Virus record (IMG/VR): IMGVR_UViG_3300025715_000009
Location: 288,001-352,000 of that record
Reading direction: 5' to 3' (one strand)
DNA length: 64,000 bases
Source of the DNA: a virus
Lineage: Duplodnaviria > Caudoviricetes
The notes below the pieces were generated by a model. The model saw only the letters and a list, made by a program, of their open reading frames with translations. It had not been told where the DNA came from and searched no databases. The position numbers were made by a program, and so were the translations under genes. Shown here one piece after another: positions 4,142 through 64,000 of the stretch (the first letter of the stretch is position 1; each line of letters starts with the position of its first letter).

Positions 4142-4576
4142 TCATAGTGTCCCACAATTATACCTCCATAATGTTGGTCTAACTCTATTATACCAAGAAC
4201 TATCTTCTCTTTCATCATTATCAACATAGGATAAAGCTTGTTTATATCCCCAAGAAATAGATTGGTCAGAAAATATAATACCATCTTTTTTAGCTAGATT
4301 AATTCCTATATGCCAACATTCTAATTCAATTATTAATGTATTATAATTCCATTCTTTAATAAATTCTTGAGTTATACGACAATGACCTAATTCATGAAAA
4401 AATGAAATTAACATTTTTTCTTCATCATCATAATCTCCAAGCCAAATTTCATCATTACCTATAACCCAAGAATGATTTTTTTTGTCCCAATCATCATGAT
4501 TTTTATCAATAAAAGTGATAATAATATTATATTTTTCTGCTAATTCTAAAATCTTTTCTTTTGCCCTATTCATAAT
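4142..4576 (-). CDS. HEXXH metallopeptidase-like protein (ImmA/IrrE-like)
   Basis: FFHELGH plus downstream E..CW..G; probable start MNRAKE. Confidence 0.55.
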   Translation of the reverse strand: MMNRAKEKILELAEKYNIIITFIDKNHDDWDKKNHSWVIGNDEIWLGDYDDEEKMLISFFHELGHCRITQEFIKEWNYNTLIIELECWHIGINLAKKDGIIFSDQSISWGYKQALSYVDNDEREDSSWYNRVRPTLWRYNCGTL

Positions 4577-5024
4577 CTTCAGGGTTAAAAACTGTAGAAA
4601 CTTCAACGTTTGGCAATTCGCCTGATTCTGTTTTCTTTATTAAATCATCAATTATTTTAAGTGTTCTTTTTGTTTGATATAATTCGCTTATTGGACGTTT
4701 AATATCAACCAACTCCATAGCAATAATATCCCCTAAAATACCAAGCCAAATTTCTTTTGTAAATGGTCCATCAAGACAATCGTTTCCTCGATGCCAATCT
4801 TCTCCAGCTCGTGGTTTTCTACTTGTCATTGTGCACCCTAAATAACCTTCATAACCATCGTGAGGTGGTTTAGCAGTAATTGAATAATGATTTATGTCTG
4901 TAAATAATGACATTTTAACACAATCATCATCAACATAAATACAATCATTAAATTCGTATTTATGTCTCCTCACTGTCTCTAAAAACCATTGATATAATTT
5001 GTCCGCGCATTCTTGTAGGTTCAT
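4566..5024 (-). CDS. Hypothetical phage protein
   Basis: GGAGG RBS before MNLQEC. Confidence 0.7.
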   Translation of the reverse strand: MNLQECADKLYQWFLETVRRHKYEFNDCIYVDDDCVKMSLFTDINHYSITAKPPHDGYEGYLGCTMTSRKPRAGEDWHRGNDCLDGPFTKEIWLGILGDIIAMELVDIKRPISELYQTKRTLKIIDDLIKKTESGELPNVEVSTVFNPEDYE

Positions 5025-5077
5025 AACAAACCCTCCTTGAGGATAAAATAACAAGCCATAACAACTTGTTTTAATAA

Positions 5078-5259
5078 TCGGGAGGCGAGGATTTGAACCT
5101 CGCTCTTTCTACATTCACACTTTAATCATGATTTACTGCAGTAATCATGCTGTCTGAAACTTGCTGTCCACCTCCGCGTTGGCTTTCAGTATTGTCAGAC
5201 TCGAAATGTAGTTGTGCTATTCAGCTCTAAGGCTGGCCTTTTTCCCTACACTACCCCCG
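5078..5259 (-). ncRNA. Expanded tRNA-like RNA (182 nt) with insertions in the D-loop and anticodon loop
   Basis: CGGGGG/CTCCCG acceptor, TAGTGT...GCAC D-stem, CTACATT/AATGTAG stem around a ~90-nt insert, GCGAGG-TTCAAAT-CCTCGC T-arm. Confidence 0.7.
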
Positions 5260-5264
5260 TAGTG

Positions 5265-5335
5265 TGCCCCATTTGGGAATCGAACCCAAGTAAATAGTTT
5301 TAGAGACTACCGCTTTACCATTAAGCAAATGGAGC
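5265..5335 (-). tRNA. tRNA with CUA anticodon (amber suppressor)
   Basis: GCTCCAT/ATGGGGC acceptor; GTAGT-CTCTAAA-ACTAT anticodon arm; canonical TTCGATT T-loop. Confidence 0.88.
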
Positions 5336-5371
5336 AAGTTTGCCAGTTAAACTGGCAAAACTATATATGCT

Positions 5372-6049
5372 TTAGACCTTGAAAGTTTGCCTCATTTCAT
5401 AATTATCCCAACGTTTACCAGCATAATGTTTAATATCTGTCATACTATGTGGAAGAAAACCAGATTCTGAATTATTTTCTTCAAATTGATATTCAGACAT
5501 TAATGGAATTAAAATCCTACCATTATATAATGACATCCATGCAACGCAATCGTCTAAAAGTTCATTGCTTCCTAATTCACAATATCCAAATAAGTCTTGG
5601 ACTTCCAATTTTCCCTCAGATATTTTAGATAAATCAATTGCTTCTAATTTCCATCCTCCACTATCATCTCCCCAAACACATCCAGCAACAATAGCCAAGT
5701 TTGCTATTTTAGAATTTGGGTCTAATTTAGACTCATCCCAATAATCATAATCATTAGGAACACTAAAATCTACTGGACAGAAACCAGAGTTATGTTCAGC
5801 TATTAACTGACAATCTGGCAAAGACATTAAACTCACTGTTTCATAATCATGAGAATATAAAGCATATTCTTTCTCTTTCCATTTAAATGGATAAAATGTA
5901 TTATACATTGAATGATAATTTCTTGTATATTCGCCTATTTTAATTCCATCTTTTAGTATTTCAACTAATAAAGAATTACAATATCCATGACCATTACTTA
6001 TATCTGATGTTTTGGTTGTATAGTTTTTTAGTCTTTTCATTCTAGCCAC
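5372..6049 (-). CDS. Hypothetical phage protein
   Basis: 225-aa ORF in a tightly packed operon. Confidence 0.7.
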   Translation of the reverse strand: MARMKRLKNYTTKTSDISNGHGYCNSLLVEILKDGIKIGEYTRNYHSMYNTFYPFKWKEKEYALYSHDYETVSLMSLPDCQLIAEHNSGFCPVDFSVPNDYDYWDESKLDPNSKIANLAIVAGCVWGDDSGGWKLEAIDLSKISEGKLEVQDLFGYCELGSNELLDDCVAWMSLYNGRILIPLMSEYQFEENNSESGFLPHSMTDIKHYAGKRWDNYEMRQTFKV

Positions 6050-10348: not shown

Positions 10349-11177
10349 GGGCTGAGACTATACCCTTCTCGCTATCACTTTCAAGCCCGTACCTTTGAGG
10401 TGCTACCCTCTCCGTTAAGCTCTTATCCACATCCTCATGGATGTCTGATAGCATGGCTGCCTTTTTTAGAGAGTGGCTTTTCTCTCGTCACAACAAGTTA
10501 ATCAACCTTCCGGTTACCGTCTACCTTGCGAGCAGTAAAGGACCGCTAAGTCCACCGTGCACCTTCCCATCAAACCCTTCCGCCTTGCGAGCTTCCAGGC
10601 TCCAGATTCTCTTTCGAGTCTGGACTTAAGCCATTTTCGCTTGTTGTCGGTCAAGACTTTTGCGTTTTCAATTGTTGGACTCGAACCAACGACCGATTGT
10701 ATTACAAGACAATTGCTCTACCATTGAGCAAAACTGAACGGGTTTCCCCTTGACCACGAGGTGCTTGACCAGTTGCTCCATATCCTTTTGAGATACGGAA
10801 TACAACACCTCGCATACATTTTACCTGCCGGCTACTTTGTGGTTTTTCAAGACCAGGTATTCCCCTGAATCTATCAAACTGCTATTAAGCACTTGTCTGC
10901 AAAGACTCGCACCTAATAACTACTGTTCTCTCTCATAGATAATCAGTTTTGCATGAAGATAATCCCTTGCGAGGAAAAGTTACTCTCACCCGGTTGGCCC
11001 TGAATAACTCTGTCTCTTCCTGATGTCTCTACAAATTCCGCTGGTAGCGAAATCATAGGAGAGTCAGCTTGCTTACATGAACTGTATTACTACAGCGGGA
11101 GGCGTCACCCTTTACCCCTTTATGATTATTGCTAATCACTATTCTTCGCCTTTCGGCAGGACCATAAGCAGCCCTTA
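10349..11177 (-). ncRNA. Large structured ncRNA, GOLLD-like (~830 nt)
   Basis: GC-elevated region lacking a credible ORF, many GNRA hairpins, ends resembling recalled GOLLD termini (GGGCTGCTTATGGTCC... / ...GGGTATAGTCTCAGC), own promoter motif and terminator, embedded tRNA. Confidence 0.7.
10667..10738 (-). tRNA. tRNA-Thr(UGU)-like element with an 8-nt anticodon loop, inside the large ncRNA
   Basis: TTCAGTT/AATTGAA acceptor, ATTGT-CTTGTAAT-ACAAT arm, GTTGG-TTCGAGT-CCAAC T-arm. Confidence 0.7.
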
Positions 11178-29370: not shown

Positions 29371-30015
29371 TTAAAAATCCCTTGTCTTCAGTTTAGTAAT
29401 AATCCTCTCCCCTTTCCTAGAAAAGAGGCTCACACTTGGGACTAGAACCAAACCTTCTGCTTTCGCATTTCCTATTGTAGACTTAAAACCTCCTTTTACC
29501 ATTTCAATTGCTTGACCTAATGTTCCTTTAAATAGAACAGGAACAGATTTGATACCTAATTTAGCGGCAATACCATCGACATCTTCTCGCTTTAACCACC
29601 AACCATCAATCCAGACATCAAACAAGATAAAGTCAACTCCATTAGGGATGTAATCCCCTCCACCTTTTTGAATCTTAGCTCCATAGCCTTCGCCATAGAG
29701 AGTTACATTTGTCATTCTATTTCCATCAAAATCACGTTCAATACCAGGAAAAGCTTCTTCCCAATTAATTTTGGAAACAATCTCTTCTAGTTTAGTCTGA
29801 AGGAAAGAAGGGATACTTGCATTATCTGACTTGCCTTTGATTTCTACTTTCTTGCCATCCCAAATGATGCGAATGTTTGTTCCATCAATTTTTTCTGTTC
29901 CAATCCATTCATTGTTGAATAGATAGGCAAATTCAGGTTGAGCAAAATCTCCAATGATGAAATCACCATTATCATCTCGTTTATACAGTCCATTAATTTT
30001 ATGATACTGTTTCAT
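29371..30015 (-). CDS. RNA ligase (Rnl2-like nucleotidyltransferase domain)
   Basis: EKIDGTN, LYGEGYG, FILFDV, EGLVL, KLK motifs. Confidence 0.85.
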   Translation of the reverse strand: MKQYHKINGLYKRDDNGDFIIGDFAQPEFAYLFNNEWIGTEKIDGTNIRIIWDGKKVEIKGKSDNASIPSFLQTKLEEIVSKINWEEAFPGIERDFDGNRMTNVTLYGEGYGAKIQKGGGDYIPNGVDFILFDVWIDGWWLKREDVDGIAAKLGIKSVPVLFKGTLGQAIEMVKGGFKSTIGNAKAEGLVLVPSVSLFSRKGERIITKLKTRDF

Positions 30016-61976: not shown

Positions 61977-62621
61977 CTACTCATAATATTTCATCCAATC
62001 TGTAGAATATTTTGTTTTTAGCTTTTCAAGATAAGAATTTGTTTTAATCTTACACATCCATACCTTGCCTCTAAAAGCACCACTCTTTTCTCTTCCTTTG
62101 CAAATTACTCCTTCATTTACACTAAACTCATTCTCTCTTACCCTGTTGATAAAATCATCAGTTAAATTGCCTTCATAAATCACTCTTGGTGTAGGTACTA
62201 TGCCTAATAATTTATTAGCTACTTTGACAAACTCTTGAGGCATTAAAAATTCTGTCCATTGGCTTTTAATTAAGAGGATATCAAACATGACAAATCGCAT
62301 CTTATCAATTGGGTCGCTATGAAAACCAGCAAATGAATTTGGGCCTACATACTCACCAAAAACAACTATTTCTTTATCTTTAGGATAAAATTTGCGGAAA
62401 TACTCTTCTAGTGGTTCTTTGCAAGTTGAATTAAAGACATTGACTACTCCACCTAAAATTGGATGAGAAGAGTCAATAAGTTGTGTTCTACTTCCAAATA
62501 AGTCAAATCCTCTTTTAGAAGTATATTTGACTCTTATATTACTCCCATCAAGCTTTTCAAAAGCTATCATTTGTTTTCTGGGGGCTCTGGAAGAATTAAT
62601 AATGGAAGGATACTCTATCAT
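61977..62621 (-). CDS. RNA ligase-family protein (second)
   Basis: FEKLDGSN, VFGEY, MFDI, EGVI, KIKT. Confidence 0.82.
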   Translation of the reverse strand: MIEYPSIINSSRAPRKQMIAFEKLDGSNIRVKYTSKRGFDLFGSRTQLIDSSHPILGGVVNVFNSTCKEPLEEYFRKFYPKDKEIVVFGEYVGPNSFAGFHSDPIDKMRFVMFDILLIKSQWTEFLMPQEFVKVANKLLGIVPTPRVIYEGNLTDDFINRVRENEFSVNEGVICKGREKSGAFRGKVWMCKIKTNSYLEKLKTKYSTDWMKYYE

Positions 62622-63897: not shown

Positions 63898-63932
63898 TGA
63901 AGAAAGAAGGACTTGAACCTTCAACCGGATTA
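63898..63932 (-). pseudogene. Orphan tRNA 3' fragment
   Basis: GAAGG-TTCAAGT-CCTTC-TTTCTTC-A with coding-like sequence immediately 5'. Confidence 0.55.
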
Positions 63933-64000
63933 CTTCATCTTTCTTAATAATATATTGATTGATTTCATGGTACCATCCACCAATCTCAAAAAAGATAGAT

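Follow-up and report, generated by a model that had tools for sequence, protein, structure and literature searches.

The 64,000-nucleotide stretch of DNA analysed here, referred to as the window, comprises bases 288001-352000 of a 388,268-bp virus record in IMG/VR (IMGVR_UViG_3300025715_000009; Caudoviricetes), which is estimated to be 98% complete. On the minus strand of the window, the gene of an amber-suppressor transfer RNA (tRNA) is followed by an element of 182 nucleotides (nt) that has the outline of a tRNA and carries extra sequence both in the D-loop and on the anticodon side (Table 1). The element, which is the subject of this study, begins 5 nt past the discriminator base of the suppressor tRNA, on the same strand, and the two are probably co-transcribed. 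Past its 3' end lies a terminator-like hairpin that is kept, with a pair-preserving change, in strains L038 and L039 and that is unlisted in a simple terminator scan because it contains few G-C pairs. Nucleotides of the RNA are designated by an index i, which equals 5260 minus the window position and hence follows the minus strand.

Table 1. Positions of the element, its predicted parts and its immediate neighbours in the window
Feature	Position	Strand	Remarks
Whole tRNA-shaped RNA	5078..5259	-	182 nt; discriminator A (i182) at 5078
Amber-suppressor tRNA, anticodon CUA	5264..5335	-	ARAGORN; Rfam tRNA model 65.1 bits; well formed
Terminator-like hairpin AACAAG...CUUGUU, then U-rich tract	5043..5070	-	read from sequence; 8 nt past the element
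Acceptor stem, 5' strand, CGGGGG (i1-6)	5254..5259	-	pair probabilities 0.90-1.0; 6 bp with i176-181
Acceptor stem, 3' strand (i176-181), then discriminator A	5079..5084	-	folding, strain changes
T-arm: 6-bp stem (i157-162/170-175), 7-nt loop UUCAAAU	5085..5103	-	pair probabilities 0.97-0.98
D region: possible 4-bp D-stem (i9-12/43-46), 30-nt loop (i13-42), possible small hairpin	5214..5251	-	fold uncertain
Extended "anticodon-arm" stem, 5' strand (i49-58), holds the supposed UCG triplet	5202..5211	-	RNAalifold consensus
Extended stem, 3' strand (i141-151, U143 bulged)	5109..5119	-	folding, strain changes
Hairpin A (i60-108), internal loops, apical loop AACGCGGA	5152..5200	-	lower stem, pair probabilities 0.95-1.0
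Hairpin B (i111-133), near-palindromic, loop UGCA	5127..5149	-	most pairs, probabilities 0.9-0.98

The tRNA frame

The native element escapes the usual annotation tools. ARAGORN calls no tRNA in it, with or without the intron search, and at low stringency, with intron and transfer-messenger RNA (tmRNA) modes, yields one spurious Tyr call with many mismatches. The Rfam search for a known family, which the original prediction had proposed as a check, returned none on the element, at the gathering thresholds or at E-values up to 10, the tRNA model RF00005 included. A canonical decoding tRNA was rejected on the absence of an RF00005 match and of an ARAGORN call and on the pairing of the candidate anticodon triplets in a 10-bp stem. 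Covariance model R1 has the element as its single match in the 388-kb genome (223 bits).

When parts of the element were deleted in silico, 270 constructs were called tRNAs by ARAGORN, all of which had lost both the D-loop and the anticodon-side inserts. The anticodons of these trimmed constructs (UCG, CGA, UUC, GUG and others) track the chosen boundaries, and a defined excision restoring one particular tRNA is without support. A genome-wide scan for similar frames outside called tRNAs, in which a T-arm precedes a strand able to pair with a site 40-420 nt upstream, gave few GC-rich matches, all of them on the tRNA strand within tRNA arrays. Since these matches are few and so confined, and since ARAGORN accepts the trimmed constructs, the tRNA frame at the element is more than chance.

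Predicted secondary structure

The frame consists of an acceptor stem and a T-stem of 6 bp each, where 7 + 5 is usual, and the 12-bp coaxial stack is thereby kept; the two 6-bp stems had been proposed from the sequence and are upheld by their pair probabilities (Table 1). Together with this stack, the T-loop (UUCAAAU; UUCGAGU in L038) conforms to the canonical tRNA consensus UUCRANY, the variable loop has 5 nt, and under the 6 + 6 reading U7 and A13 occupy the places of U8 and A14 in tRNA. By its ends, an acceptor C1:G72 with A73, the element is closest to tRNA-Pro(UGG) among the phage tRNAs, a sequence likeness that hints at descent of the scaffold from a tRNA-Pro gene.

The D region is ambiguous, with three folds lying within 2 kcal/mol, one of which pairs i8-14 with i49-55. 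A D-stem could be formed by G9-U12 with G43-C46, enclosing a 30-nt loop that contains GGG; this tRNA-like fold is predicted at -48.4 kcal/mol, as against -48.5 kcal/mol for an alternative pair of hairpins. The CAGC/GCTG hairpin originally placed in the D-loop is only one of several near-isoenergetic folds, with a pair probability of about 0.4 and no strain variation at that place.

The anticodon arm had been described as carrying an insert in place of its loop; it is actually replaced as a whole by a domain of about 82 nt, comprising hairpins A and B, above a 10-bp stem (i49-58/141-151). The supposed UCG triplet (i56-58) and most GUG triplets, from which excision was to generate an anticodon, are base-paired in this stem, which speaks against that proposal. 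Hairpin B, which contains the CATGATT/AATCATG pairing recognized at the outset, holds, the strain change A131G merely turning a U-A into a U.G pair. The CTGAAA/TTTCAG stem would be broken by the strain change U102C and is therefore replaced by another register, GUCUGA/UCAGAC plus 67-69/100-102, in which A67G and U102C compensate each other. A Shine-Dalgarno-like GGAGGUG in hairpin A was considered as a ribosome-binding site and dismissed, as it lacks a usably spaced start codon and is weakened by G86A.

Variation among strains

Over 341 nt, four independent assemblies show no difference from the window. A variant found in one DNA run and one RNA run carries A8G, A67G, A81G, G86A and U102C, to which the more distant strain L038, which is 7% diverged, adds G5A, a 1-nt insertion in the A-run of the D-loop, A131G, U141C, G144A, A145G, A166G and A168G. 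All 12 substitutions of L038 are transitions and none breaks a predicted pair; seven fall at predicted pairs, with pairing kept in every case. G5A converts the fifth acceptor pair from G.U to A-U, U141C a G.U into a G-C pair and G144A a U.G into a U-A pair, and A145G, like A131G, leaves U.G in place of U-A. In hairpin A, the compensatory change of A67G and U102C (A-U to G-C) is present in two variant strains. Through the changes at i141-145, the "anticodon" stem reaches 10 bp, which places the UCG triplet (i56-58) inside a helix.

A166G and A168G correspond to T-loop positions 57 and 59, with U54, U55, C56 and A58 untouched, and in the D region only loop changes occur (A8G and the 1-nt insertion). 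A81G and G86A exchange two purines on opposite sides of the apical loop in hairpin A; this loop holds a self-complementary CGCG flanked by purines, and the two are swapped together between strains. The only indel in the element is the single nucleotide in the A-run, and the 19-nt spacer directly downstream has lost 5 nt. Taken as a comparison of sequences, the strain variation provides modest evidence for the structure; the covariation test that had been suggested yielded one compensatory pair among strains and no homologues beyond the phage species.

L038 and L039, which are otherwise collinear with the window, lack positions 4150-4566 (about 417 nt, most of the open reading frame (ORF) at 4142..4606). 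The difference amounts to a gene inserted or deleted in particular strains, two genes downstream of the element.

Accumulation of the insert-bearing RNA

Expression was followed by comparing, over window positions 4900-5500, the Logan contigs of one DNA run and of three metatranscriptome runs (X8, X18 and X19), which carry three study codes and are all 2018 activated-sludge libraries. Two of the RNA runs each contain a 169-nt contig covering 5078..5243 or 5078..5244, at a depth of 13 and 21.7, and in the third, contigs measuring 80 and 96 nt fall within the element. In these three runs, no other feature of the 600-nt stretch is covered as well. Cover is zero in all three for the 178 nt downstream and for the suppressor tRNA upstream, whereas it is even across the whole stretch in the DNA run; the signal therefore stems from RNA and not from contaminating DNA. 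The uncovered parts in the RNA runs (4900-5067 and 5257-5361) serve as a contrast only and are no proof of non-transcription. The insert-bearing, 3'-matured form of the element accumulates well above its neighbours.

The 3' end of this RNA is sharp: all contigs stop exactly at 5078, the discriminator base, beyond which the 169-nt contigs have 2 further letters in one case and 3 in the other. These letters do not align to the genomic UUA and are therefore untemplated; most simply, they are CCA. The contigs span both inserts and no splice joint was reported in them. The failure to see a spliced form is in itself weak evidence: these libraries would miss a 75-nt product just as they miss the neighbouring 72-nt tRNA, which has zero cover.

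In run X19, two alleles of the element occur together over window positions 5128-5223, differing at 5158, 5174, 5179 and 5193, which indicates that two co-existing strains both express it.

Searches for relatives

The element was not recovered outside the phage species by any of the searches made. With blastn, 50,697 phage records gave ordinary tRNAs alone, matched through the suppressor-tRNA part of the query, and a test of the inserts as small mobile elements found no paralogues in the 388-kb genome. Exact and degenerate pattern scans of IMG/VR (T-arm/acceptor, hairpin-A apex, suppressor tRNA) returned 0, 2, 0 and 0 stretches, the two matches being odd 81-nt tRNA-Pro calls without inserts, and two scans of bacterial and archaeal genomes returned 0 matches. 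On four related or syntenic viral records, model R1 produced just a 16-bit hairpin match, which was taken as chance.

The neighbouring genes lead no closer to a homologous locus. In IMG/VR, no relatives of the upstream gene were found and 3 of the downstream gene, for which metagenomes supplied 24. The identity of these relatives of the downstream gene does not exceed 57%; at their loci the element was not found by nhmmer or blastn, one of them having an ordinary tRNA-Ile in its place. In a search of 5.8 billion proteins, the identity of the neighbouring genes' matches jumps from 99% to 55%, with nothing between. A terminase search gave one relative (TerL 60% identical), in which an ORF directly follows the CUA tRNA and no tRNA-like RNA is present.

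The CUA tRNA of this relative, at 113615-113688, has a similar T-arm and is preceded by an AGCATA motif. As a promoter motif, AAGCATA was unconvincing, with 26 matches against 16.8 expected.

Comparison with known tRNA-like RNAs

That phage tRNA clusters can contain genes of additional stable RNAs has been recognized since the 1970s, RNAC and RNAD of T4 being the examples. In T4, RNAD and RNAC lie directly after tRNA-Arg in the tRNA cluster, and RNAC ("species 1 RNA", rnaC; 139 nt) combines in its fold a canonical T-arm and an acceptor-like closing stem, with long hairpins between. It has no Rfam family, and nothing directly relevant was found in the literature on species 1 RNA and on GOLLD or tRNA-like RNAs. 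The function of RNAC is still described as unknown (PMC3014915, PMC9697503). Like the element, it is a stable small RNA encoded a few nt after a same-strand tRNA in a phage tRNA cluster, and in both the 3' strand behind a canonical T-arm pairs, in the manner of an acceptor stem, with the 5' end. The element for its part shares the traits by which an RNA of this type may be recognized: a start few nt past a cluster tRNA, a T-arm with a closing stem, a length of 120-190 nt, and accumulation. The two lack homology at the level of sequence or model, R1 giving no match at the T4 locus. Their frames differ as well, being 7/5 in RNAC, where two U.U mismatches interrupt the acceptor stem, and a clean 6/6 in the element, and the arms that are expanded are not the same. 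Conservation of rnaC extends to 740 T-even-type phage records, as compared with one phage species for the element. On this comparison, the element is analogous to T4 RNAC and not homologous to it.

Other RNAs share parts of the design. With tmRNA, the element has in common an acceptor and T-arm, a degenerate D region, a long helix for the anticodon arm leading to a structured domain, and a tRNA-like 3' maturation; it differs in having no G3:U70, no predicted pseudoknots and no supported tag frame, in being half the size, in matching no tmRNA model in Rfam or ARAGORN, and in that the phage has a separate, true tmRNA. In intron-containing tRNAs (group I, or archaeal with a bulge-helix-bulge), the tRNA frame is likewise interrupted at the anticodon region. 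A group I core (P3-P9) in the anticodon loop usually exceeds 200 nt, whereas the insert of the element is short, contains no such core, is accompanied by a second insert in the D-loop and is retained in the form that accumulates.

YrlA is often encoded next to rtcB, and its tRNA-like module, which is bound by Ro/Rsr, belongs to an RNA that ends in the Ro-binding stem and not in a free acceptor stem. The element resembles it as a noncoding RNA (ncRNA) whose T-arm and D-arm imitate the elbow of a tRNA, in a genome that has RtcB; it differs in matching no Rfam family and in the absence of a TROVE/Ro gene from the phage. YrlA and bacterial Y RNAs were rejected as identifications, there being no Rfam match of the Y RNA-like type and no PF05731 (TROVE/Ro) in the genome. 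GOLLD is, like the element, a structured phage RNA that is tied to tRNA arrays and incorporates a tRNA-shaped module. In GOLLD the tRNA is a small module within an RNA of 400-800 nt, whereas in the element the tRNA frame is on the outside and the novel domain inside; there is no sequence relation between the two.

tRNA-related genes and RNAs of the phage

The sequencing runs that contain the virus come from anaerobic digesters and activated sludge. Its genome has 59 tRNA genes according to ARAGORN, all on one strand, among them a tRNA-Arg(UCG); none of the 59 encodes CCA, and the phage encodes a CCA-adding-type nucleotidyltransferase (PF01743). It furthermore carries RtcB and three Rnl2-type ligase domains; the two RNA ligases that the original prediction had counted in the window are confirmed by PF09414 matches at about 29389-29910 and 62076-62570. 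In the RtcB ORF (record positions 112708-114909; 733-737 amino acids), the Pfam match is split (model positions 13-50 and 142-425) by more than 1 kb in frame, which suggests, from the sequence, an intein or other large insertion.

Several further structured RNAs were encountered in the same region. A reduced tmRNA of 274 nt lies on the minus strand at record positions 286841-287114, about 0.9 kb before the window and about 6 kb upstream of the element; it scores 41.7 bits in Rfam (E-value 8.7e-15; gathering score 47) and is not called by ARAGORN, and its ends (GGGGCUGA...CUCCA) and tag (ANDNFALAA) are intact. A GOLLD RNA on the minus strand at window positions 10349-10813 (183 bits, E-value 5.7e-50) embeds a tRNA-like module at 10666-10738 with an 8-nt anticodon loop. 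Just past the end of the window, at record positions 352060-352359 on the minus strand, there is a tRNA-Leu(UAA) with a group I intron that matches Rfam Intron_gpI above the gathering score (58.4 bits); ARAGORN misses this intron-bearing gene, so that the Leu-UAA isoacceptor seemed absent.

Only 7 nt after the latter, a second tRNA-shaped frame of 155 nt occupies record positions 351898-352052 on the minus strand (window positions 63898-64000 and beyond). Its acceptor stem has 7 bp, its D-arm is normal and its T-arm canonical, but 99 nt stand in for the anticodon arm and variable loop; the Rfam tRNA model gives it 36.7 bits, and it has no sequence in common with the element. A stretch of 143 nt at record positions 354195-354337, again on the minus strand, contains a canonical T-arm (UCAGG-UUCAAAU-CCUGA) and a weak acceptor-like closing stem without any tRNA or Rfam call, and is possibly a third expanded tRNA-like RNA.

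Interpretation and alternatives

With a probability of about 0.6, the element is a stable ncRNA that is built on a tRNA scaffold and matured by the tRNA pathway, and not a decoding tRNA. A tRNA-scaffolded ncRNA was among the possibilities raised originally, and it agrees with the accumulation of the RNA with both inserts and a tRNA-like 3' end, with helices that tolerate strain variation, and with the lack of an Rfam match. Maturation could proceed in the following manner: The element would be transcribed jointly with the upstream amber-suppressor tRNA, and RNase P would free its 5' end, as we infer from the 12-bp acceptor/T minihelix and the 5-nt spacer. The 3' end would be trimmed to the discriminator base and then receive about 3 untemplated nt, most simply CCA, from either a host enzyme or the phage nucleotidyltransferase. 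The finished RNA would keep the top half and elbow of a tRNA (acceptor, T-arm and a D region with GG), together with a D-loop of 30 nt and, instead of an anticodon arm, a 10-bp stem topped by a three-way junction that bears the two hairpins. The tRNA half may supply processing, stability and access to tRNA-binding proteins, whereas any specific job would reside in the inserted domain.

A number of points weigh against this assignment. No homologue was found beyond the strains of one phage species by sequence, pattern or covariance-model searches. The z-score of the fold is modest (-1.8 to -2.2), 67/102 is the only true covariation, and for pairs predicted from the window alone the probability that 12 random transitions break none is 0.068. 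Constraint is weak, the element diverging by 6.6% as compared with 11.7% at the 4-fold degenerate sites of its neighbours (12/103). All three RNA runs are from 2018 activated sludge, possibly from one campaign, and CCA is the presumed identity of the 2-3-nt 3' extension. The first 15-16 nt are absent from the RNA contigs and the 5' end lies outside the covered part, which may reflect random-primed 5' loss, a stop of reverse transcription or nicking of the A-rich D-loop.

Because conservation is so shallow, a decaying tRNA gene is a serious rival, if on balance an unlikely one. A gene that was formerly, and probably, tRNA-Pro-like would have received insertions in the D-loop and the anticodon loop, and its transcript, processed as for any other tRNA, would be kept by the intact acceptor/T minihelix without having a function of its own. 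Restriction to one lineage, absence beside the suppressor tRNA of the nearest relative and a divergence near the neutral proxy (6.6% versus 11.7%) would all be expected of such a remnant, and the acceptor end resembles that of the phage tRNA-Pro(UGG), with an identical T-arm and acceptor 3' strand in the odd tRNA-Pro calls of two other viral contigs. Decay accounts less readily for two insertions located exactly in loops with all four cloverleaf stems intact, for inserts that themselves form stable helices, and for changes at paired positions that all keep pairing, one of them by compensation. It also has to be reconciled with a 1-nt A-run indel as the only one in 182 nt when 5 nt were lost from the 19-nt spacer downstream, with the highest cover of the 600-nt stretch in three RNA runs, and with a second, unrelated frame of like design in the same genome. 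A protein-spliced intron, the other possibility raised originally, is very improbable. In this reading, the insert or inserts would be excised and the halves joined by the RtcB or Rnl2-type ligases of the phage, giving a decoding tRNA such as Arg-UCG. The phage does carry RtcB and three Rnl2-type ligase domains, removal of both inserts in silico does give sequences that ARAGORN accepts, and a mature 75-nt product would, like the adjacent suppressor tRNA, be invisible in these libraries. Two independent excisions would be required, however, as removal on the anticodon side alone never yields a tRNA call; the resulting anticodon depends arbitrarily on the boundaries, and the candidate anticodons lie within a paired stem in which base pairing survives the strain changes. 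Neither of the known routes of splicing is apparent: i49-58/141-151 contains a single 1-nt bulge and no 3-nt/4-bp/3-nt bulge-helix-bulge, the splicing endonuclease PF01974 was not found in the 98%-complete genome by a search in which archaeal controls were positive, and the insert, as had been recognized, is too short for a group I intron at 82-89 nt and gives no Intron_gpI match, whereas the same search detects the group I intron of tRNA-Leu(UAA). Furthermore, no RNA contig contains a joint, the insert-bearing form has a matured 3' end, and the phage already possesses tRNA-Arg(UCG).

Least probable of all, and hardly to be expected, is a miniature tmRNA-like or otherwise chargeable RNA, which would be aminoacylated at a CCA end, enter the ribosome or donate its amino acid and use a 12-codon tag frame in hairpin A starting with GCC AAC. 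Its architecture does resemble a tRNA-like domain with acceptor, T-arm and a long helix for the anticodon arm, an open frame (ANAEVDSKFQTA-stop) runs from i77, and untemplated letters are present at the 3' end. An open frame of 12 codons, however, is expected by chance about half the time; all three strain changes within it are non-synonymous, one being explained by helix covariation, and the tag would lack the usual hydrophobic-Ala-Ala end. The original prediction was right in seeing no tmRNA-type Ala acceptor, as the third pair is G-C, G3:U70 is absent and the only G.U, the fifth pair, is A-U in L038. There is no Rfam tmRNA match at E-values up to 10 and no ARAGORN tmRNA call, and a recognizable phage tmRNA with the tag ANDNFALAA is encoded about 6 kb upstream.

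Implications

If the element is a tRNA-scaffolded ncRNA, a more specific role may be proposed at a low level of confidence: an anticodon-less, CCA-tailed mimic, made along with the amber suppressor, could bind proteins that recognize tRNAs by their acceptor end or elbow and leave decoding untouched. Such a mimic might serve as a sponge that draws off host toxins or defence enzymes whose targets are the 3' ends or acceptor stems of tRNAs, a decoy role being a possibility that was also entertained originally, or as a chargeable carrier of an amino acid; the three-way junction would add a second surface for binding or self-association.

Irrespective of its role, the element warns that tRNA finders and Rfam miss RNAs of this kind. 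One and the same phage encodes 59 tRNAs, a tmRNA, a GOLLD RNA, an intron-bearing tRNA and at least one further frame of the element's design. The combination of a tRNA top-half scaffold with a foreign domain at the place of the anticodon would be a design that has arisen independently in a 388-kb environmental phage. As it is expressed in wastewater metatranscriptomes, the element may offer a second example, unrelated to that of T4, for asking what such RNAs do.

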